Shown: piece by piece, positions 2,096 through 64,000 of the stretch
How the letters are laid out: the number at the start of each line of letters is the position of its first letter
Position numbering within the stretch: the stretch's first letter is position 1
Virus record (IMG/VR): IMGVR_UViG_3300013105_000022
Location: 72,516-136,515 of that record
Strand: one strand, 5' to 3'
Source of the DNA: a virus
Lineage: Duplodnaviria > Caudoviricetes
Length of the DNA stretch: 64,000 bases
Translations under genes and position numbers: made by a program
Notes under the pieces: model-generated
What the model was told of the DNA's origin: nothing
The model's input: the letters and a program-made list of their open reading frames with translations, nothing else
Database searches by the model: none

Positions 2096-3991
2096 ATGTC
2101 CAAATTCATGACCATGCATGAGTTCTTCAGCGAGCCTGAAGAAACTCTACAAGAGGGAAGTCTAAGCTCTATCTTTGCCGAGGAGCCGGTAGACCTTCGT
2201 ACCTTTATCCGAGACCCCAAATTCCTCGGACAGACGAACGTCGAGCTATCTCCAGAACAGGCGCGTGCCATTCAGGTAATTGAGCGTGTCTACTACCCAG
2301 ACCTATATCCGCGCATGGCGGAAGAGTTCGAATTCGGTGAGTACTGGGGTCAGGACATCCCTAGCGCTAACCTCATCACTCTCCAGTGGGGTAAGGGTTC
2401 TGGTAAGGACGCCATTTGCCGTTGGGCCTCGCTCCGTGTGGCATATCTACTTCTCTGCCTCAAGTCTCCGCAGTTGTACTTCGACATGCCTGAGACTGAC
2501 TCCATTCACCTTCTGAACATTGCCGCTAACGCTCCTCAGGCTAACCGAGCGTTCTTCAAGCCTATGACCACTGCCGTCAAGCAGGGATGGTTCAAGGGCA
2601 AGGCAATCATCCGTCAGGGTGAAATCGAGTACGACAAGAACATCTTCGCCGTGTCTGGTCACTCTGACGCTGAAGGTCAAGAAGGTCTGAACATCATGCT
2701 TGGTGTTGCTGACGAGATTGACGCCTTCAAGGCCAAGGATGAGATGGTCGGAACGGGTAAGAAGCTCCGTGAGGCTTCCACATCCGCTGAGTCGATTCTA
2801 GAAATGCTGAAGACCTCCGCATCTACTCGATTCCCGAAGACCTACAAGCGCGTAGCCATTTCCTACCCTCGCTACCTTGGATCGACTATCCAGCAGTTGA
2901 CCACAGAAGGTCGTGAGTCGAACGAGAAGTACGGCGCGCGCTCTATTCACTACGTCTCCGGACCCCTAGCTACTTGGGATGTCAACCCCCGTATCTCTGG
3001 TAAGGAAGACTTCTTCGAGGACTATGAGAAGGACCCTGTAGGTTCTGCCGCCAAGTACGAGTGCAAGCCTTCCCGAGCTATCGACCCGTTCTTCCGCAAC
3101 ATGGACATCTTCAAGCTGGCCGTGGATAACGATGTCATGCCTCTCACCATCGACTACAAGCCGGTGAACTACTACTCCCCTCACTACCACCGCAATGTGC
3201 GTGGCTGGGAGCCGATCTTCCACTTCTCTCCTGACTTCAAGCCGATCCAGGGTGCTCGCTACGCACTCCACGGTGACCTTGCTATCAAGGGTGACCGTGC
3301 CGGTATCGCTATGAGCCACGTCGAGAAGTGGGAACACTTCGACGCCACTCTGGTGGACAATGAGGGAGCGAACTATCAGAAGGAGATTGTTCGTCCTCTG
3401 ATTCGCAATGACTTCACCATCTCGTTCGAGGCTAAGGCTGAGGCACGAGACACCAATGGTGACCCACTTCCCCGCGAAATCCAGATTCGATGGGTACGAA
3501 TGCTGGCTGAAGAACTCCAGAACCGTGGATTCCCTATCAGCCTATTCACTTTCGACAGCTTCCAGTCTGCGGACACTATTCAGATTTTCACGTCCCAGGG
3601 CGTGGAGTCAAACAAGGTATCTACCGACCGTGATCCATCCCTATGGTCGTCCCTCAAGGACGTAGCATCTGAGGGTCGTCTACGCATGCCATTCGATCAG
3701 CTACTTATGAATGAGCTTGAGGCACTTTCTAGAATTGACAACGGAAAGGTAGATCATCCGCCGAACGGCTCTAAGGACTTGGCGGACGCATTCTGTTGCT
3801 CAATCGCTGGTGCCATTGTCGTAGGTGGAGAGGAATCCCCCGATGGCGCGATAGTAGATGTCGGAGGCGCATACTTCATGACGGGTCCTGCGCTTAGCCC
3901 GCTAGAGGGCATGGACGACGTATCGCAGACGTTGGGCGATCCGATGGGTATGCCACTAGGATTCCCGGATAGAGGAACATATGGCTGGTAA
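2096..3991 (+). CDS. terL: Terminase large subunit
   Basis: Walker A WGKGSGKD, Walker B GVADEID, nuclease motifs HGDLA..GD and DHPPNGSKDLADA. Confidence 0.92.
   Translation: MSKFMTMHEFFSEPEETLQEGSLSSIFAEEPVDLRTFIRDPKFLGQTNVELSPEQARAIQVIERVYYPDLYPRMAEEFEFGEYWGQDIPSANLITLQWGKGSGKDAICRWASLRVAYLLLCLKSPQLYFDMPETDSIHLLNIAANAPQANRAFFKPMTTAVKQGWFKGKAIIRQGEIEYDKNIFAVSGHSDAEGQEGLNIMLGVADEIDAFKAKDEMVGTGKKLREASTSAESILEMLKTSASTRFPKTYKRVAISYPRYLGSTIQQLTTEGRESNEKYGARSIHYVSGPLATWDVNPRISGKEDFFEDYEKDPVGSAAKYECKPSRAIDPFFRNMDIFKLAVDNDVMPLTIDYKPVNYYSPHYHRNVRGWEPIFHFSPDFKPIQGARYALHGDLAIKGDRAGIAMSHVEKWEHFDATLVDNEGANYQKEIVRPLIRNDFTISFEAKAEARDTNGDPLPREIQIRWVRMLAEELQNRGFPISLFTFDSFQSADTIQIFTSQGVESNKVSTDRDPSLWSSLKDVASEGRLRMPFDQLLMNELEALSRIDNGKVDHPPNGSKDLADAFCCSIAGAIVVGGEESPDGAIVDVGGAYFMTGPALSPLEGMDDVSQTLGDPMGMPLGFPDRGTYGW
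3848..3856 (+). promoter_or_regulatory. Late motif GCGATAGTA inside the terL 3' end, upstream of portal
   Basis: Exact motif copy 133 nt before the portal ATG. Confidence 0.55.
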
Positions 3992-5879
3992 GGACGACGA
4001 AGACAACAAGCTTGAGGCAGGCGAGGTCGCGGCTAACAACCCGAACGCCTTCCCAAAGCCGAAGGACAGTGAGCTTGGCATCGAACTCGGTGTGGAGCAA
4101 AACCTGCCCTTTGCTGTACCCTTCAGCGACGGCCTTGGAAAGAAGGCACGCCAGGACAAGGAGCTACGAGAGCTTCTTCGTGACGAGTCCGAAGAGCAGG
4201 GTCCTTCTGTATCCCAGCTAATCGCTATGCGCCGTCTGGATGGTCAGGCTCGTGCTCTGTATCGTCTACTCACGCTCCCTCTGCGTGCCGCTCTCTCCAA
4301 GAGCACCTTCATCCCCGCCGATGGGGGAGAAGAAGAAGCAGAGTTCATCGATCACCAGTTCAACCTCCCACCGGCATCCGGTGGTATGACTGTGACCTTC
4401 CACAGGTTCATGGCTCAGCTTCTCCAGGCTCTGTTCGACGGGTTCTCTCCTTTCGAGATGGTCTACGACTACTCTACGTACGGTCCTATGAAGGGCAAGT
4501 ACTACCTGAAGAAGATGGCCTACCGCCAGCCAAACACCATCACCGTTATCGAGGACGAGGATGGCCACTTCGCTGGCTTCCGTCAGCGCGCCTACGCTAA
4601 CGGCAAGGCTTACGATGTCGTGATCCCTCGCGAGCGTGCGTTCTACTTCGCCGCTCAAGAGGAAGAGCGCAAGTACTACGGTGTGAGCTTCTTCCAGAGT
4701 GCGTTCTACCACTACGACAAGAAGATCAAGATGTACTACATCGCCCACCTGGCCGCTCAGCGTGCCGCCGTGGGTACTCGTGTGGGTAAGTTCCCGACCA
4801 ACATGTCTGAGATTCAGAAGCGCCAGTTCGCTCAGAACCTCTCCAACCTGGCCGTGGCACAGTGGATGCTCGTTCCGATGGACGCTGAGGTTGAAATCCT
4901 CAAGGACAGCGGTTCCTTCGCGTTCCTGGACTACATCAACCACCACAACCACATGATGGCTCAGTCCATCCTTGCGGGCTTCTTCGACTCTGACACAGGT
5001 ACAGGCGAGAGTGACAACACTCTCGTCAAGTTCGGCACGCCTGGCGACACCATGTTCTTCCTGATGCTTCAGGCCATCATGGACGACATCGCCAACTCGA
5101 TCAACCACTACATCATCCCGCCGCTCATCGACTGGAACTTCTCGGGTGGAAAGTACCCGACATTCCAGTGGTCTGAGATTACGGCTGAGCAGAAGTCTCT
5201 CATCTACGAGACCTTCAAGACGCTCGCCAACGCCGAGACTGTATCCCCTGAGTTCACCCGTGAACTAGAAATCAAGATGGCCGATGACATGGGCCTTGAG
5301 ATTGACTGGGATGAGGTCGAAGCTCGCGAGGCCATTGAGAAGGAATCCGAGAACATGGTCAACGGTCTCGACGCAGACGGTAAGCCTCTGCCGAAGGACG
5401 CTATGGGCAACCCGATCCTCCCAGGTCAGGACAACCCGGATGCCGCCCTCCAGGCTTTCGAGACTCAGGCCGCTGGCGCTGGTGCCATTCCAGAGGCTAC
5501 AGATGAAGAGAAGAAGGCTGTCAAGCTCTCTGCCGACGAGAGCCTACTAGACATGGCTTCTGACCTTCTGAAGCTCGCCCGTCCTACCTCCGGCTCGTAC
5601 CGAACGGTACGTACTCAGGAGGGTGCAGAGCGCTTCGACGTATCCATTGGTCAGCAGATTCCTGCTGGCGCTGGACGAGACGAAGAGGGCGGCAAGCGCA
5701 AGGTAACTGTCGAGCGTCTGATGTCTCTCCGTTCCCAGTTCGATGAGGCTAAGCGCGCCGGTAACCAGGCCGTTGCCGACAAGGCTATGGAAGCCCTGAA
5801 GAAGGCAGTCTACGACTACACAGGTTCCTGGTCTCCTTCCATGTTCATCCAGACGATGAAGAAGCTCCCGACTAAGTAA
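3981..5879 (+). CDS. Portal protein with C-terminal extension
   Basis: Follows terL; LFDGFSPFE, YYGVSFFQSAFYHY and IIPPLIDWNF...YP features of Mu gp29/DUF935-like portals. Confidence 0.85.
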   Translation: MAGKDDEDNKLEAGEVAANNPNAFPKPKDSELGIELGVEQNLPFAVPFSDGLGKKARQDKELRELLRDESEEQGPSVSQLIAMRRLDGQARALYRLLTLPLRAALSKSTFIPADGGEEEAEFIDHQFNLPPASGGMTVTFHRFMAQLLQALFDGFSPFEMVYDYSTYGPMKGKYYLKKMAYRQPNTITVIEDEDGHFAGFRQRAYANGKAYDVVIPRERAFYFAAQEEERKYYGVSFFQSAFYHYDKKIKMYYIAHLAAQRAAVGTRVGKFPTNMSEIQKRQFAQNLSNLAVAQWMLVPMDAEVEILKDSGSFAFLDYINHHNHMMAQSILAGFFDSDTGTGESDNTLVKFGTPGDTMFFLMLQAIMDDIANSINHYIIPPLIDWNFSGGKYPTFQWSEITAEQKSLIYETFKTLANAETVSPEFTRELEIKMADDMGLEIDWDEVEAREAIEKESENMVNGLDADGKPLPKDAMGNPILPGQDNPDAALQAFETQAAGAGAIPEATDEEKKAVKLSADESLLDMASDLLKLARPTSGSYRTVRTQEGAERFDVSIGQQIPAGAGRDEEGGKRKVTVERLMSLRSQFDEAKRAGNQAVADKAMEALKKAVYDYTGSWSPSMFIQTMKKLPTK

Positions 5880-5887
5880 GGGGCGCT

Positions 5888-6673
5888 ATGACCTCCTTCA
5901 AGGAGCAGATGCGAGTACACGAGGCCTCCAGGGAAGCAACCTCTGCCCTGGAGGCTGTGTCTCGTAGCGCCATCGAGCGTATCTTCTCCGAGTGGGAGTC
6001 AGACATTCATGATGCCCGTAGCGTGCGCTGGGAGCTAGAACGAGTAATTCGTAACGCCTACCGATCCAGCGCTAACGTAGCTCGTAACGTGGCCTCTGAA
6101 TCCTCTGGCCTGCCTGACTGGTCATCTGCCGAAGTCTTCAACTCTTCCTACCTCCAGTCGCTGATCCTGGACGTTCGTCGCAACCTCCGTGACTACAAGA
6201 GCGGCAACCTCTCCAGGGAAGGTGCAGTCTCTCGAATCCAGCACTCTGCCGGTGTAGCCGCACAGCGTGGATACACGGATCAGACCATCGCTTCCTACAC
6301 AGAGCTTGAGGACTTCGGCCTGGAGCTACGCAAGTACTGGGTGGCCAACTTCGTCAACAACACCCCGTGCCCTGCATGCACGCGCCTACACGGCACGGCT
6401 GTGGGATTGCATGAGATGTTCCGCACGGAGACAGGCGAGCCTGGAGTCTACCGTGACCTCATTGGTCCTCCCCGCCATCCGAACTGCAAGTGCCGCCTCT
6501 ACATCTTCGTGGTCTCGCTGGAGAACGCCTTTGAGTCTCCCAACTTCGAGAAGCCTCAGGAAGCTCCTCAGATGATGAGCACTGACGACGTGAAGAAGAT
6601 GCCGCTGTCTATCTTTGGAGCCGTCAGAGCGAGCCTGAGCGCCATTCTGAGCTTCCTACGAAAGGGACGCTGA
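5888..6673 (+). CDS. MuF-like minor head protein
   Basis: PCPAC..LHG and PPRHPNCKC motifs; directly after portal. Confidence 0.8.
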   Translation: MTSFKEQMRVHEASREATSALEAVSRSAIERIFSEWESDIHDARSVRWELERVIRNAYRSSANVARNVASESSGLPDWSSAEVFNSSYLQSLILDVRRNLRDYKSGNLSREGAVSRIQHSAGVAAQRGYTDQTIASYTELEDFGLELRKYWVANFVNNTPCPACTRLHGTAVGLHEMFRTETGEPGVYRDLIGPPRHPNCKCRLYIFVVSLENAFESPNFEKPQEAPQMMSTDDVKKMPLSIFGAVRASLSAILSFLRKGR

Positions 6674-14872: not shown

Positions 14873-15301
14873 ATGGCAAATGAAATCCTAGTCATCAGCC
14901 CTGAACTGAAGAAGCTGATCGATTCTGTTCCTGTAGAACTTCTACGCAGGGGGCCAGAGCGTTACGACTCTCTGCGCCCCTCTGCGCGAGGCTCCTGGAA
15001 GACTGTCCTATACGACGGCCTACCCATCGCTGTGGCGTGGACGGACTGGAAGGAAGGCTTCGGGATTATCAACCTGAAGACCGAAGAACCCACAGACCGT
15101 CTAGAGAATTACGTCATCACAGCTAAAGCGCTTGACATCCCCGCCGGTTGGGCGTATACTTCACTTGAGACAGTTGTATCTAAGTACGAGTTTGACCGAG
15201 AGGTAACCCTATCCGGTCAGACGGACGGCAAGCTGAGCAAGCTCACACAGGACGAGGAGACAGAAGTCGATACGGAAGAGGATGACGATGACACTGAATA
15301 A
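14873..15301 (+). CDS. Hypothetical protein with acidic tail
   Basis: AAGGA RBS; directly after the giant gene. Confidence 0.7.
   Translation: MANEILVISPELKKLIDSVPVELLRRGPERYDSLRPSARGSWKTVLYDGLPIAVAWTDWKEGFGIINLKTEEPTDRLENYVITAKALDIPAGWAYTSLETVVSKYEFDREVTLSGQTDGKLSKLTQDEETEVDTEEDDDDTE
15132..15160 (+). promoter_or_regulatory. Consensus housekeeping-sigma promoter TTGACA-N17-TATACT inside a CDS
   Basis: TTGACA 15132-15137, TATACT 15155-15160, preceded by GGCG like the other early-class promoters. Confidence 0.65.
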
Positions 15302-15614
15302 GAAGCTTGAGGGCGACATCACACAGGTTGAGGGGTACTACCTCGCCGTAGCTCGTGGTGCCGATTCGGGTGAGTTCATCGGCTTCTATGGCTTCACTCC
15401 TGACGGAACCTACATCCGCAACGCGGGTAACTGGATCACCGCCACAGGCCCTGCCCTGAACAAGCTCAACGGTGCTCAATTGGTCGAGATGAAGAACACA
15501 TTCATCCTCCGCTTTGACGCATTGGACAAGAAGGGACTCCTCCCTCCCGGAGATGATGTCCTGGAAGAGAAGAGCACAAAGGGCAATCCAGGCTCCTGGG
15601 ATTCACAGAACTGA
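15288..15614 (+). CDS. Hypothetical protein
   Basis: GAGG RBS 6 nt before ATG 15288 (alternative start 15282). Confidence 0.7.
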   Translation: MTLNKKLEGDITQVEGYYLAVARGADSGEFIGFYGFTPDGTYIRNAGNWITATGPALNKLNGAQLVEMKNTFILRFDALDKKGLLPPGDDVLEEKSTKGNPGSWDSQN

Positions 15615-15654: not shown

Positions 15655-15660
15655 CTAGGT

Positions 15661-16773
15661 ATGGACGACGATCTTGTTTATGTACCCGACGAAGGCAACT
15701 CCTTCGTTGAGCTTTCGCGCACCCCTTCGGGTAAGCTGTACCGCAAGCACATCCTTACCAAGGGTCCTCTTTACTACCCTGGCGTAAAGGGCGGAAAGAT
15801 TGACGTAGACGACAAGTTCCTTGATACGGTTGTCAAGAACTTCAACGATCACGTCGTATCTCACGTACAGGCACCGGTGGTCGATGGAAACAATTCCCAC
15901 ACCGAAGACCCGTTCCGTAACATTGGTGAAGTTATCAAGGTTGAGCGTGAGGGTGATAAGCTATACTCGTACATTGACGTACGTGACGAAAAGGCTGTCC
16001 CTCTTGTAGGTAAGACTCTTCTTGGTGCTTCTGCTATGTTCTCCCTCGACTGGAAGAACAACAAGACCAACATGCGTGTTGGACCGGCCCTGATTCACAC
16101 GGCCATTACCAACAACGCTCATGTCAACGACCTCGAAGATTTTGAGGAAGTGCGACTCTCCAATGGAGTGAGCGATAGTAATACACGACAGAAGGCAGTG
16201 GTACTTTCCGCTAGCCCAGACGACAACACTAAGGATGGTTCCGCAATGGACCTAGACGAACTGATTGCAGTCCTTAAGGACGAGCACGGTATCGACGTTC
16301 CTGAGCTTCAGAAGGCGGCTGGCAAGGCTGACAAGTTCGCCAAGCTTTCTGCTGAGCTTCAGGAGAAGCTTGCTACGGGCGAGGATGCAGTCCTCAAGCT
16401 GAGCAACACCGATGACGAGGCTTCTGCCGAGGACATCGTTGCCGCAGTTGCTGACCTCGTACAGTCCCGCGTAGAGCTTTCCTCCAAGGTCGATGGCCTT
16501 GTCAAGGATGCCGCTACCGCTAAGGCTGAGGCTCGCATCGAAGAGCTTGTTGCCGGTGGCTTCATCGCCCCTGCCAAGCGCGCCGAGAACCTGGAGCTTC
16601 TGCTCTCCAACGCCGAGCTATTCGAGCGTATGGTTCCTGAGAAGCCGCTCGTCAAGCTCTCTGCTGAGGACGGCCAGGAGCACAAGGATGACTCGCACGA
16701 CGAGACTGTCGCAAGTGAGGTCGCCCGTCTTTCCGCCGATGCCAAGGCCAACGGCCTTCTCATCGAGGCCTAA
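15661..16773 (+). CDS. Capsid maturation protease fused to scaffolding protein
   Basis: Mu I-like protease region (H...IGEV, GASAMF, LIHTAITNNAHV) plus helical C-terminal half; upstream of decoration and MCP genes. Confidence 0.8.
   Translation: MDDDLVYVPDEGNSFVELSRTPSGKLYRKHILTKGPLYYPGVKGGKIDVDDKFLDTVVKNFNDHVVSHVQAPVVDGNNSHTEDPFRNIGEVIKVEREGDKLYSYIDVRDEKAVPLVGKTLLGASAMFSLDWKNNKTNMRVGPALIHTAITNNAHVNDLEDFEEVRLSNGVSDSNTRQKAVVLSASPDDNTKDGSAMDLDELIAVLKDEHGIDVPELQKAAGKADKFAKLSAELQEKLATGEDAVLKLSNTDDEASAEDIVAAVADLVQSRVELSSKVDGLVKDAATAKAEARIEELVAGGFIAPAKRAENLELLLSNAELFERMVPEKPLVKLSAEDGQEHKDDSHDETVASEVARLSADAKANGLLIEA
16172..16180 (+). promoter_or_regulatory. Internal late motif upstream of an in-frame scaffold start (ATG 16246)
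   Basis: Exact motif; AAGGA RBS before the in-frame ATG. Confidence 0.6.
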
Positions 16774-57630: not shown

Positions 57631-58224
57631 TTGTTCTACCTGACGGTGGACCTGGCCTCTAGATTCTCAGCCGCTGTGCTACGAGATGATACAGGCCGGG
57701 TCCGCTGGCAGGGCGACTCTGGAGGAGTCTCGCCTAAGGCGTGGGTCAACACTATCGCAGATGTCACCCACCGTCTAGAGGAGCAGGGGCACGAGGTTCA
57801 CGTCCTTGTGGAAGACGTGCCCTATGGTGTATCCTCCCAGGCTATGACCAAGCCGGTGACCCGACTCCAGGGTATGCTCATGCTGGCAATGGATCGTGAT
57901 TTCTACTTCATCAGTCCAACGACTTGGATGAAGGATTACGAAGGCGTGGCACGCGCACCCAAGGGTATGACTAAGGCTGACAGCCTGAAGTACCGAGATG
58001 CTAAGGCACTAGAGCACGCCGCGAATCTAGGCTACAATCCACCTGACCTCATTCAGGCGTACATCGACTCACTTCCCGAGGGTACGAAGGTTCTGAAGAA
58101 GAACACGAACCCTCTCGCCAAGTCCATGACGGACTACGTTATGGCGTTCCTGATTAACGATTGGCTCGTCCGACACGAGGACGAGTACACCACTCTTACG
58201 GGCGTGCAGATCGCCCTCATTTAA
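57631..58224 (+). CDS. RuvC-like Holliday junction resolvase
   Basis: TVDLA, VLVED, SPTTW and late D; between SSB and RecA. Confidence 0.65.
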   Translation: MFYLTVDLASRFSAAVLRDDTGRVRWQGDSGGVSPKAWVNTIADVTHRLEEQGHEVHVLVEDVPYGVSSQAMTKPVTRLQGMLMLAMDRDFYFISPTTWMKDYEGVARAPKGMTKADSLKYRDAKALEHAANLGYNPPDLIQAYIDSLPEGTKVLKKNTNPLAKSMTDYVMAFLINDWLVRHEDEYTTLTGVQIALI

Positions 58225-61637: not shown

Positions 61638-62417
61638 ATGTGGCTTTTCACAGAATTCGGGTATCTTCTCCCGACCATCACCTTCGATGACGACCCCATG
61701 CGTTCCACGGATCAGTGGGATCACTACTCCGTGGGTGGACAGTTCACCTTCCAGATTCGTGCTCGCCTCAAGGAGCACCTGGACTACTACTTGGCCAACT
61801 TCGCTGAAGCAGGCACGTACGGTGACATCTGGGCAACGCCCGACCACGACTACAACTTCCGTGTCTTCACAACTCAGGAGGCATTCGCCACCGCAACTGC
61901 TAAGATGGTCATGGCCATCGACTACCGGCACTTCAAGGACGAGTCCACGAAGTATCCGCGTGGTCACGAGTATCACAAGCTCCTGTTGGATGTCTGGCAG
62001 GACTCTGCGGAACTGGGAGACGGCCCTGGCGGCTTCTATGGTCCCTGGTCACCCGAGAACCCCAAGGGATACCGGCGTGCGCGTCAGTACAACGGCTGGG
62101 GCTGGGCAGACTATGAGGGTCGCCGTGTAGGTGACACCTTCGAGGGCATCGACTTCGGAGATGAGGATGAGCAGGAAGACTCCTGGTACCTGGACCCTCG
62201 CTTCGAGGATGCAGAGAACGAAGACCTCACCGATGACGAGCGCAAGGCGCGTGAACTGATCGAGGAGATGGATCGGTACGGTGTCTCTATGGAGGACTGG
62301 CACCTGAACATGCTTCCGAGCGAGTTCGAGACGGTCATCCCTGCTCTGCGTCAGAGCTTCAGCAAGAAGAAGATCAAGCGTTGGCGTGCGGAGAACCACC
62401 GGAACTTCGTCCTCTGA
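61638..62417 (+). CDS. Hypothetical protein
   Basis: AAAGGA RBS; MWLFT..G, IRAR..EHL, DY.FR, IDY..FK pattern. Confidence 0.75.
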   Translation: MWLFTEFGYLLPTITFDDDPMRSTDQWDHYSVGGQFTFQIRARLKEHLDYYLANFAEAGTYGDIWATPDHDYNFRVFTTQEAFATATAKMVMAIDYRHFKDESTKYPRGHEYHKLLLDVWQDSAELGDGPGGFYGPWSPENPKGYRRARQYNGWGWADYEGRRVGDTFEGIDFGDEDEQEDSWYLDPRFEDAENEDLTDDERKARELIEEMDRYGVSMEDWHLNMLPSEFETVIPALRQSFSKKKIKRWRAENHRNFVL

Positions 62418-62437
62418 GAAAAAAGTTGCCGTTTAGG

Positions 62438-62467
62438 TTGACAGATGCTCAGAAGTAGCGTATAACT
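62438..62467 (+). promoter_or_regulatory. TTGACA-N17-TATAACT promoter of the RNA cluster
   Basis: TTGACA 62438; GCG then TATAACT at 62461. Confidence 0.78.
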
Positions 62468-62474
62468 GAAGTAA

Positions 62475-62707
62475 GACAAACGGGAACCACTTAGACACCA
62501 GCCCCGGCGATCTTGCCCAAGACCTAAGAGCACGAAGCAAATGGTGAGTATGTGTGGGAATGCGGATACTTAGGCACTCAACTTCATAGACTGCGGTTCC
62601 ATAGGACAGCGAATCCACTGCGTGTGGGGCATCCTAGCCGCCGGGTCAGCCTCCAGGTCTCCTTTCTGGTTGGTAGCTTTCGAATGGTTCGGAGGCTGAC
62701 CCCTTCT
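62475..62707 (+). ncRNA. Putative structured RNA / leader of tRNA cluster
   Basis: 12-bp perfect stem 62643-54/62691-702 and crossing long-range helices; no credible ORF. Confidence 0.5.
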
Positions 62708-62780
62708 GCCCCACTAGGCAATGGAAGACCATCGATTCTCAAAAAGTCGAATGCTGTCGGTTCGAATCCGACGTGGGGTA
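62708..62780 (+). tRNA. tRNA-Leu(CAA), short variable loop
   Basis: Acceptor GCCCCAC/GTGGGGT, loop CT-CAA-AA, T arm GTCGG-TTCGAAT-CCGAC, A73. Confidence 0.8.
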
Positions 62781-62830
62781 CGGAGTGTACGATAGTATGG
62801 TACACTGGTAGAAACAACTGAAAGACGTAT

Positions 62831-62901
62831 GCGCCTATGGTGTAGTGGGAACACAAGAGCTTCCAAACCTCTTGACTCGGGTTCGATTCCTGGTGGGCGT
62901 G
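62831..62901 (+). tRNA. tRNA-Trp(CCA)
   Basis: Acceptor GCGCCTA/TGGGCGT, loop TT-CCA-AA (C31:C39 mismatch), TTCGATT T loop, G73. Confidence 0.75.
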
Positions 62902-62922
62902 CGGTATAACTGAACAACGTGT

Positions 62923-62995
62923 AGCGCGGTGCAAGTAAAGGTAACTGGACAGCCTCATAAGCTGATCGATAGGGGTTCAACTCCCCTCTGCGCAA
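62923..62995 (+). tRNA. tRNA-CAT (Met/fMet/Ile2 uncertain)
   Basis: Loop CT-CAT-AA, T arm AGGGG-TTCAACT-CCCCT, A1:A72 mismatch. Confidence 0.75.
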
Positions 62996-62996
62996 C

Positions 62997-63235
62997 GAAG
63001 ATGAAGAAATTCATCGACTTCAGGCCATACGGTCTGAAAACTACTGTAAGGTAAGAGTATGAGCAAGTTTGAGTATGAACTCCCCCTGGATCACCCAGGC
63101 AGGCTTTGAGTACCCAAATTAGCTGTACTCGAAGCCTCTGACACGGAAAATGTTAGGGGCTTCTTGCATCCCAGGACGCGGAGACGTATACCTGAGATAG
63201 CGATTGAACTTCGGGTCAAGCGGGCAACCGGCTCC
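62997..63235 (+). ncRNA. Putative multi-hairpin structured RNA
   Basis: At least six stems including a 13-bp one (63101-13/63125-37), with GNRA loops. Confidence 0.5.
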
Positions 63236-63261
63236 CCAACAAATCAACAGAGGAATCTTAT

Positions 63262-63337
63262 CTAGATGTAGCTCAGCTTGGTATAGAGTGCTCGCCTCGG
63301 ACGCGAGAAGTCGTGGGTTCAAATCCCACCATCTAGA
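63262..63337 (+). tRNA. tRNA-Pro(CGG)
   Basis: CTAGATG/CATCTAG, loop CT-CGG-AC, canonical D and T arms, C1:G72, A73. Confidence 0.9.
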
Positions 63338-63378
63338 CGACAGGGTTGTAGGTATACCGGTTAGTGGAACCTTCATGA

Positions 63379-63449
63379 CAGGCTGTGGCGTAATGGTAGC
63401 GTGTTTGGTTTGGAACCATAGGGCGGGAGTTCGATTCTCCCCAGCTTGA
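63379..63449 (+). tRNA. tRNA-Pro(TGG)
   Basis: CAGGCTG/CAGCTTG, loop TT-TGG-AA, TTCGATT, A73. Confidence 0.88.
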
Positions 63450-63527
63450 CGAGACGGAGACGAGGGTTCGATTCCCTCCACCGGGCCTTGTGCCTGGTGT
63501 AGTTCAATGGTAGAACACCGTCGTGAG
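63450..63527 (+). ncRNA. Circularly permuted tRNA-like RNA (YrlA/Y-RNA-like architecture)
   Basis: Order is T arm, loop-closed 8-bp acceptor stem, D arm, all closed by GACGG/CCGTC. Confidence 0.8.
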
Positions 63528-63600
63528 CGCGGGATAGTGTAAATGTGCACGGCCACTAGGGAGTGGTTAGTTCAGGGGTAACGACCTGATCCTGTGACCA
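63528..63600 (+). tRNA. Atypical tRNA-Pro(AGG)-like RNA with encoded CCA
   Basis: Four intact stems, C1:G72, A73, CCA; non-canonical D, anticodon and T loops. Confidence 0.6.
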
Positions 63601-63698
63601 ACTTCCGGTGAGGGTCTTTGACCTTTAGCCGGTTGCGGAGAGGGCCTAGTTACGTAGGCAAAGTACATGTGCCAGGTGGGTAGGAGCTTGTACATTAT

Positions 63699-63773
63699 GG
63701 TGGTAGAGGCAGAGCGGTTGTTGCAACAGGTTGTGAGCCTGTCCCCTGGCGGGTTCGATTCCCGTCTATCACC
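63699..63773 (+). tRNA. tRNA-His(GTG)
   Basis: G-1:C73, GTGGTAG/CTATCAC, loop TT-GTG-AG, TTCGATT. Confidence 0.9.
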
Positions 63774-63775
63774 CG

Positions 63776-64000
63776 AGTACAGGTGGGAGCACCTGGACTA
63801 AGAGAAGTAGCAGGATGCAGGTACACTGAACCTGCCGGGGTCTCAATCCCCGTCCGACTACAGCAGAGGCTTGGTGGTCTACTCAACCTCAAGCCAGGTA
63901 AAGGCGCTGTTGCTATCTCGAACCCAGAACCTATGTGGCCCGTGCAGGGTACGTGTGGATAGGACGCACAACGCGGAGACCGGGAATCCGTACTGAAAGA
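63776..64000 (+). ncRNA. Putative structured RNA (may run past the window edge)
   Basis: Stems CAGGTG/CACCTG, GCAGGT/ACCTGC, CGGGG/CCCCG, GGCTTG/CAAGCC; no credible + strand ORF. Confidence 0.45.

Follow-up and report, generated by a model that had tools for sequence, protein, structure and literature searches.

A free-standing, circularly permuted tRNA-like element without a Ro60-binding handle in the tRNA array of an actinobacteriophage

The DNA analysed here (the window) is the final 64 kb (64,000 nt) of a 136,515-bp IMG/VR virus record, IMGVR_UViG_3300013105_000022, which CheckV rates as 100% complete. The phage encodes Lsr2, RecA, a family A polymerase and DnaB, and since its RecA is closest, at 44% identity, to that of Microbacterium phage Magritte, its nearest cultured relative by this protein, we consider it an actinobacteriophage. 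A tRNA array begins near window position 62700 and resumes at the start of the record. ARAGORN makes 44 tRNA calls across the complete genome, covering 20 of 20 amino acids; tRNA-His, which sits in a 119-nt repeat at the record ends, is counted twice, so that there are 43 tRNAs. The repeat is exact (record positions 1-119 and 136171-136289, the latter being window 63656-63774) and includes the tRNA-His, and the last 226 nt of the record are unique. A simple overlap of the record ends does not account for this, and there may be two copies of tRNA-His in the genome. The base directly 3' of the discriminator is C in almost all of the 44 calls, with the remainder of CCA not encoded, and no CCA-adding enzyme is encoded in the complete phage genome.

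Within this array, on the plus strand at window 63453-63522, lies a circularly permuted tRNA body, the parts of which are listed in Table 1. It starts 3 nt past the discriminator of tRNA-Pro(UGG) and ends 5 nt ahead of an aberrant cloverleaf. A preliminary description, made from the letters of the sequence, had picked out the elements of a tRNA core here, with the 3' half ahead of the 5' half; all of these elements are present, and the minimum free energy structure predicted by RNAfold, which coincides with the centroid, is the proposed permuted fold (-32.6 kcal/mol, 75% of the ensemble). This fold has a z-score of -2.98, with two of 200 shuffled sequences folding equally well. Its closing stem comprises 5 bp plus at most two extra pairs that are not conserved.

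Table 1. Positions of the parts of the permuted tRNA-like element and of its immediate neighbours (window coordinates)
Feature	Position	Strand	Basis and remarks
tRNA-Pro(UGG), upstream neighbour	63379..63449	+	ARAGORN; Rfam tRNA 61.6 bits; discriminator 63449
3-nt linker	63450..63452	+	sequence; first base is the C after the discriminator
Closing stem, 5' strand, approximately anticodon-stem positions 39-43	63453..63457	+	pairs with 63518-63522
Variable-loop equivalent, 4 nt, AGAC	63458..63461	+	sequence; same bases in G001 and Gordonia phage copies
T arm, 5-bp stem and 7-nt loop, tRNA T-loop consensus	63462..63478	+	sequence, fold, YrlA alignment
Acceptor-like hairpin, 8 bp, 5-nt closing loop	63479..63499	+	sequence, fold; outermost pair G(-1):C73-like
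U8 and A9 equivalents (two linker bases)	63500..63501	+	sequence
D arm, 4-bp stem and 7-nt loop with A14, G18, G19	63502..63516	+	sequence, fold, YrlA alignment, copies
Position 26 equivalent (63517) and closing stem, 3' strand (positions 27-31)	63517..63522	+	sequence, fold, copies
5-nt linker to next cloverleaf	63523..63527	+	sequence
Aberrant cloverleaf ending in ACCA, downstream neighbour	63528..63600	+	fold -28.2 kcal/mol, z -2.68

The same description placed the element between two tRNA-Pro genes. This is correct on the upstream side, where tRNA-Pro(UGG) is found, and does not hold downstream: the D, anticodon and T loops of the cloverleaf are all abnormal, and it goes uncalled by ARAGORN and by the Rfam tRNA model (RF00005), even with the cutoff relaxed to E <= 10. 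Both tRNA-Pro genes that are called (CGG and UGG) are upstream of the element. As far as position is concerned, the arrangement agrees with the earlier suggestion that processing of the tRNA-type units on either side would set the element free. Because no promoter-like or terminator-like site is found within 62300-64000, co-transcription of the element with the array is plausible.

The tRNA island holds other features of note. Just downstream, at window 63602-63693, is an RNA of ~95 nt with three hairpins and no Rfam match, which is 78-80% identical to a stretch between the tRNA-Pro genes of the cultured Microbacterium phages Cece and Pumpernickel and shows compensatory changes in eight of its 28 predicted pairs. 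Outside the window, the island includes a metallophosphoesterase gene (record 3116-4336; 406 aa; Pfam Metallophos, PHROG 20266). A second permuted tRNA-like element, at record 6301-6384 and likewise outside the window, sits between two tRNA-Ser genes and is built differently: its closing stem has 8 bp, its T stem has 4 bp, and its acceptor loop is of ACCA type; the covariance model R1, described below, does not detect it.

We considered several known RNA classes for the element. A canonical tRNA was rejected for 63453-63522, given that a native-order cloverleaf with an anticodon loop is absent and that ARAGORN and RF00005 make no call over these positions. A two-piece (permuted) tmRNA was rejected on a score of 9.5 bits against 47 with RF04321; ARAGORN finds no tmRNA either, and the third acceptor pair of the element is U:G rather than the G:U of an alanine-type acceptor. 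Nor can histidine identity be read from the G(-1):C73 pair, as this feature is not maintained among the sister copies. When the phage genome was searched for a parental tRNA, no close parent emerged.

The topology is instead that of the tRNA-like module of YrlA, an RNA described by Chen et al. 2014 (PMC4201824) and for which Wang et al. 2018 reported a structure (bioRxiv 10.1101/312249). YrlA has the same permuted layout (T arm, loop-closed acceptor-like stem, D arm, and ends on the anticodon side) and, like the element, keeps the bases that make tertiary contacts in tRNA. This likeness had been pointed out in the preliminary description, and the Infernal search proposed there returns a partial match below threshold: the Rfam YrlA model (RF02553) aligns to the element at model positions 28-81 only, with 28.8 bits against a gathering score of 69, and model positions 1-27 and 82-114 are unmatched. 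A full-length YrlA was rejected on this score. There are three further differences. YrlA has a Ro60-binding terminal stem, or handle, whereas the element has none and closes with a stem of 5 bp; YrlA adjoins a Ro60/Rsr gene, whereas the element has none nearby or genome-wide; and the element, unlike YrlA, is embedded in a tRNA array, where it abuts a tRNA 3' end.

That no Ro60 gene is present, first remarked for the window, extends to the complete genome of the phage, in which searches for TROVE, DUF2828 and vWA gave no matches and tblastn with the Ro protein of Magritte found nothing; the TROVE search did detect its positive controls (Magritte, G006 and G007). No carrier of the minimal, handle-less form has a detected Ro gene, and these carriers include two complete genomes, that of the window phage and that of the cultured Gordonia phage Octobien14, in which there is no TROVE gene.

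A comparison with M. smegmatis YrlA is instructive. Its host is also an actinobacterium and its acceptor stem is tRNA-length, at 7 bp compared to 8 bp in the element. In vivo, it is cut by RNase P, after which CCA is added (PMC4201824; bioRxiv 10.1101/312249), and the site of the cut is the acceptor loop (PMC4201824). M. smegmatis YrlA is, however, bound by Rsr and encoded beside rsr, whereas the window phage lacks an Rsr module, and the acceptor arms of the sister copies introduced below are, in contrast to that of M. smegmatis YrlA, too short for RNase P.

YrlA-type RNAs with a long stem do occur in the same wider phage group, in carriers whose RecA and PolA identities are 44-51%. In Magritte, G006 and G007, a TROVE gene has between one and three such RNAs directly upstream. 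Cece and Pumpernickel have YrlA-type RNAs of the long-stem kind only; adjacency to Ro is established for Magritte, G006 and G007. All of these RNAs share the tRNA-like core of the element, scoring 24-45 bits with a model built from it, but in addition have two features that the element lacks, a conserved 5' handle and a long terminal stem. The Ro-less relatives G008-G010 have no matches of either the element type or the YrlA type. Without a long terminal stem and without a Ro60 gene, docking of the element to Ro60 is very unlikely. Two observations concern the long-stem RNAs themselves. The copies in L131, L182, L184, L181, L195 and L194 and at many IMG/VR loci all have in common the motif GGUUAUC, followed by a hairpin resembling an anticodon arm, just 5' of the tRNA-like module. 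In Magritte (L131, OR553905), three YrlA-type RNAs stand in tandem at 75781-76136, directly upstream of the annotated Ro-like gene at 76553-78184; the third of them overlaps a tRNA-Arg(tct) annotated at 76028-76104, which is probably a mis-call.

To find sister copies of the element we scanned IMG/VR with a sequence pattern and then applied the covariance model R1. Five further copies came to light: three on a metagenomic phage contig, IMGVR_UViG_3300037483_000443 (G001); one in a close relative of the window phage (G002/L130), with RecA 73% and PolA 67% identical; and one common to four cultured phages of Gordonia terrae (Octobien14, Sephiroth, Kudefre and Syleon), where it is unannotated and, in NC_060134, lies at 57719-57778. 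Only four independent lineages are known to carry the minimal element. On G001, one copy is found 2 nt after tRNA-Pro(GGG) and 4 nt before tRNA-Ala, a second between tRNA-Phe and tRNA-Pro(GGG), and a third without an adjacent tRNA. The L130 copy begins 3 nt past a tRNA-Pro and is followed by an odd cloverleaf (15660-15737), the counterpart of that at window 63528-63600, while the Gordonia phage copy begins 4 nt past the discriminator of tRNA-Lys. Overall, five of the six copies begin 2-4 nt past a tRNA discriminator, several end 4-8 nt ahead of the next tRNA-type unit, and the tRNA upstream is a tRNA-Pro in three of the phages, the Gordonia phages having tRNA-Lys instead. We also note that the tRNAs of the G001 contig have CC directly 3', and that L130 has an ORF between tRNA-Met and tRNA-Pro (~15100-15490) where the window phage has non-coding sequence.

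Covariation in related phages was another check that the preliminary description had called for. Plain MAFFT alignments were structurally unsound and we therefore relied on model-guided ones. When the six minimal copies (the window copy, three from G001 and one each from L130 and Octobien14) are aligned by fitting them to the model, which in itself favours pairing, 99.2% of pairs are formed and 16 of 21 pairs show changes on both sides. None of 500 shuffles reaches these values, and slid controls are 43-58% paired. The T arm is 100% paired across the aligned minimal copies, and none of the six lacks any of the five closing-stem pairs, in which compensatory changes are seen. The stems plainly differ in sequence from copy to copy and yet remain complementary. 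With seven YrlA-type modules added to the six copies, 95% of pairs are formed and both-side changes extend to 18 of 21. The window copy and the main G001 copy are 77% identical, more than any of the 33 pairs of same-anticodon tRNAs between the two phages (median 61%); the two phages have no PolA homologue in common.

The copies do not resemble each other in every part. The acceptor arm, by copy, has 8 bp, 7 bp, a branched form, 5 bp or ~2 bp, the Gordonia phage copy being almost stemless. A14, G18, G19 and the T-loop consensus are found in the window copy, in G001 and in the Gordonia phages. Of the six copies, four retain the elbow nucleotides. In L130 the elbow consensus is gone, the T loop having an A at position 56 and the D loop no GG, and most of the acceptor arm has disappeared as well. 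Conservation across the copies extends to the closing stem, to both the D arm and the T arm, and to the location behind a tRNA.

The minimal handle-less form is rare. Applied to 99 further tRNA-rich IMG/VR loci, R1 returned tandem tRNAs or long-stem YrlA-type RNAs and no minimal copies. A broad T-loop/D-arm pattern in IMG/VR, from whose matches those 99 loci were taken, hit mostly tandem tRNAs, and a pattern of T loop, D arm and closing stem matched only ordinary tandem tRNAs in a metagenome collection and nothing in bacterial and archaeal genomes. Blastn with the element found no match among PLSDB plasmids.

What might such an RNA be for? In the reading that we favour, at a probability of roughly 0.55, the element is a genuine gene for a non-coding RNA, maintained by selection, and its product is a free-standing mimic of the tRNA body that occupies a host factor recognising tRNA. 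In terms of kinship, as suggested by layout and sequence, it is best read as the effector (tRNA-like) module of YrlA-type Y RNAs minus the Ro60-binding handle. The preliminary description had already raised a minimal Ro60-independent tRNA mimic as one option, and with neither a handle nor a Ro60 gene in evidence we arrive at the same interpretation.

There are other scenarios that might explain the element. One is that it acts in cis, as a processing or stability element of the array that recruits or positions RNase Z or RNase P, blocks 3' exonucleases or insulates tRNAs from misfolding, and that has no function once released. The abutment of five of six copies on a tRNA 3' end, the 4-8 nt that separate several from the next tRNA-type unit, and plausible co-transcription in a region (62300-64000) devoid of promoters and terminators are all consistent with such a role. 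If the array needed elements of this kind, however, it would be hard to see why about 40 other array tRNAs mature without such a neighbour, why one G001 copy has no tRNA beside it, why the element is so rare, and why elbow nucleotides are kept in four of six copies when a plain hairpin is enough for insulation. On balance we think a purely cis-acting role unlikely. It is also quite unlikely, in our view, that the element is a tolerated by-product without function, left behind when a tRNA of the proline group was permuted by tandem duplication and loss. Arrays of tRNAs do evolve through duplication, the element is found in the proline group beside another aberrant cloverleaf, and the L130 copy has lost its elbow consensus and most of its acceptor arm, much as one might expect of a relic. 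Yet compensatory changes have preserved all four helices across the six copies and their four lineages, the element is conserved between distant phages at least as well as genuine tRNAs, and the genome contains no closely similar tRNA that could be the parent.

An alternative that takes the YrlA resemblance at face value holds that the element is a true Y RNA, served either by a host Ro60 or by a Ro60-like phage protein too divergent to detect. Some Actinobacteria, M. smegmatis among them, do encode Rsr (PMC4201824), and related phages pair Ro60 with YrlA-type RNAs. What makes this improbable is that the parts concerned with Ro60 are missing: there is no handle or long terminal stem, only 5 bp and at most two non-conserved pairs; YrlA positions 1-27 and 82-114 have no match, and the GGUUAUC motif is absent along with the long stem; and the TROVE, DUF2828 and vWA searches were all negative. 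Permuted tRNA genes provide a different precedent. In those of Cyanidioschyzon merolae, a normal anticodon loop is rebuilt via a circular intermediate by splicing endonuclease and ligase. As in the element, the 3' half of these genes comes before the 5' half and the two are joined through the acceptor ends, and the 8-bp acceptor hairpin of the window copy would be a plausible site for RNase P. The element might accordingly be circularised or ligated at the anticodon side and opened by RNase P in the acceptor loop to give a working tRNA, a ligated and re-opened precursor having been the second option of the preliminary description. Joining the flanks, however, would yield a loop of 8 nt in the window copy and of 6, 10 or 12 nt in relatives, and neither a U33-like base nor an anticodon nor any other feature of an anticodon loop is conserved, so that, unlike the C. 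merolae genes, the element rebuilds none; the phage genome encodes no such machinery, lacking RtcB, Rnl2-type and T4 Rnl1-type ligases; the Gordonia phage copy has almost no acceptor stem to open; and 43 tRNAs already serve all 20 amino acids, leaving no isoacceptor to supply. We reject a ligate-and-reopen precursor on the loop lengths and the absence of a phage-encoded ligase, and regard a permuted tRNA gene in general as very improbable. The probability of an artefact, finally, is negligible. Dimeric tRNAs, in which the T arm of one tRNA stands beside the D arm of the next, can score with YrlA-type models (PMC4201824), and we saw many such false matches. But here a complete tRNA-Pro ends 3 nt ahead of the 3' half, and a separate cloverleaf comes after the 5' half, so that neither half belongs to a tRNA, and the acceptor strands are complementary over 8 bp; the complete tRNA-type units that flank the element directly exclude a dimeric tRNA. 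Mis-assembly with swapped halves, a concern voiced in the preliminary description, is excluded, since assemblies made independently and the finished genomes of four cultured phages show the same order.

Returning to the free-standing tRNA-body mimic, we can sketch how it would be made and what it might do. The element would be transcribed together with the tRNA array. Its 5' end would be generated by cleavage after the discriminator of tRNA-Pro(UGG), that is, by tRNA 3' processing, and its 3' end by RNase P cleavage at the 5' end of the cloverleaf at 63528-63600. The released RNA is predicted to adopt an L-shaped tRNA body with an intact elbow between D loop and T loop. Having no anticodon loop, it cannot decode, and it would most likely occupy a host factor that recognises the elbow or body of tRNA. 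Candidates are PNPase, RNase P, RNase Z, tRNA-modifying enzymes and tRNA-directed nucleases; the effector module of a Deinococcus Y RNA touches the KH and S1 domains of PNPase (bioRxiv 10.1101/312249). Elbow recognition cannot be the whole story, as the elbow consensus is lost in L130. With its 8-bp acceptor hairpin stacked on a 5-bp T stem, the window copy should be a substrate for RNase P, as M. smegmatis YrlA is, with the cut predicted between 63491 and 63492, and the nicked RNA could then gain CCA; for the short-armed Gordonia phage copy no cut is predicted. Since the phage has neither an RNA ligase nor a CCA-adding enzyme, any further processing would be the host's. Keeping in mind that the length of the acceptor arm varies, with 2-5 bp in relatives, nicking by RNase P and CCA addition are not a general, conserved function of the element.

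A more specific and more tentative proposal, which we put forward as a doubtful but interesting possibility, is that actinophage tRNA arrays hold a family of Ro60-independent, free-standing mimics of the tRNA elbow, which would inhibit a host enzyme gripping the body of tRNA or act as competitive decoys for it. This enzyme could, for example, be PNPase or a tRNA-cleaving nuclease of defence or toxin type; actinobacterial toxins that cut tRNA are exemplified by MazF-mt9 (PMC4756823).

The tRNA-like module of YrlA is itself already known; what is new here is a YrlA-type module without a handle in the tRNA array of a phage without Ro60, and we found no paper on handle-less modules of this type in phage tRNA arrays. 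The module of Y RNAs that was described in 2014 is met here in natural, free-standing form, without the Ro60 handle and without Ro60. As four cultured Gordonia phages, which can be grown and engineered, carry the element, the function of the tRNA-like module can be tested independently of Ro60. More generally, real RNA genes that are overlooked by tRNA finders and by Rfam thresholds occur in the gaps of phage tRNA arrays. Should the decoy proposal be true, nicking by RNase P and addition of CCA could turn the window copy into a two-piece acceptor with a histidine-type G(-1):C73 end, and the tRNA-like module of Y RNAs would be an autonomous device for binding effectors.
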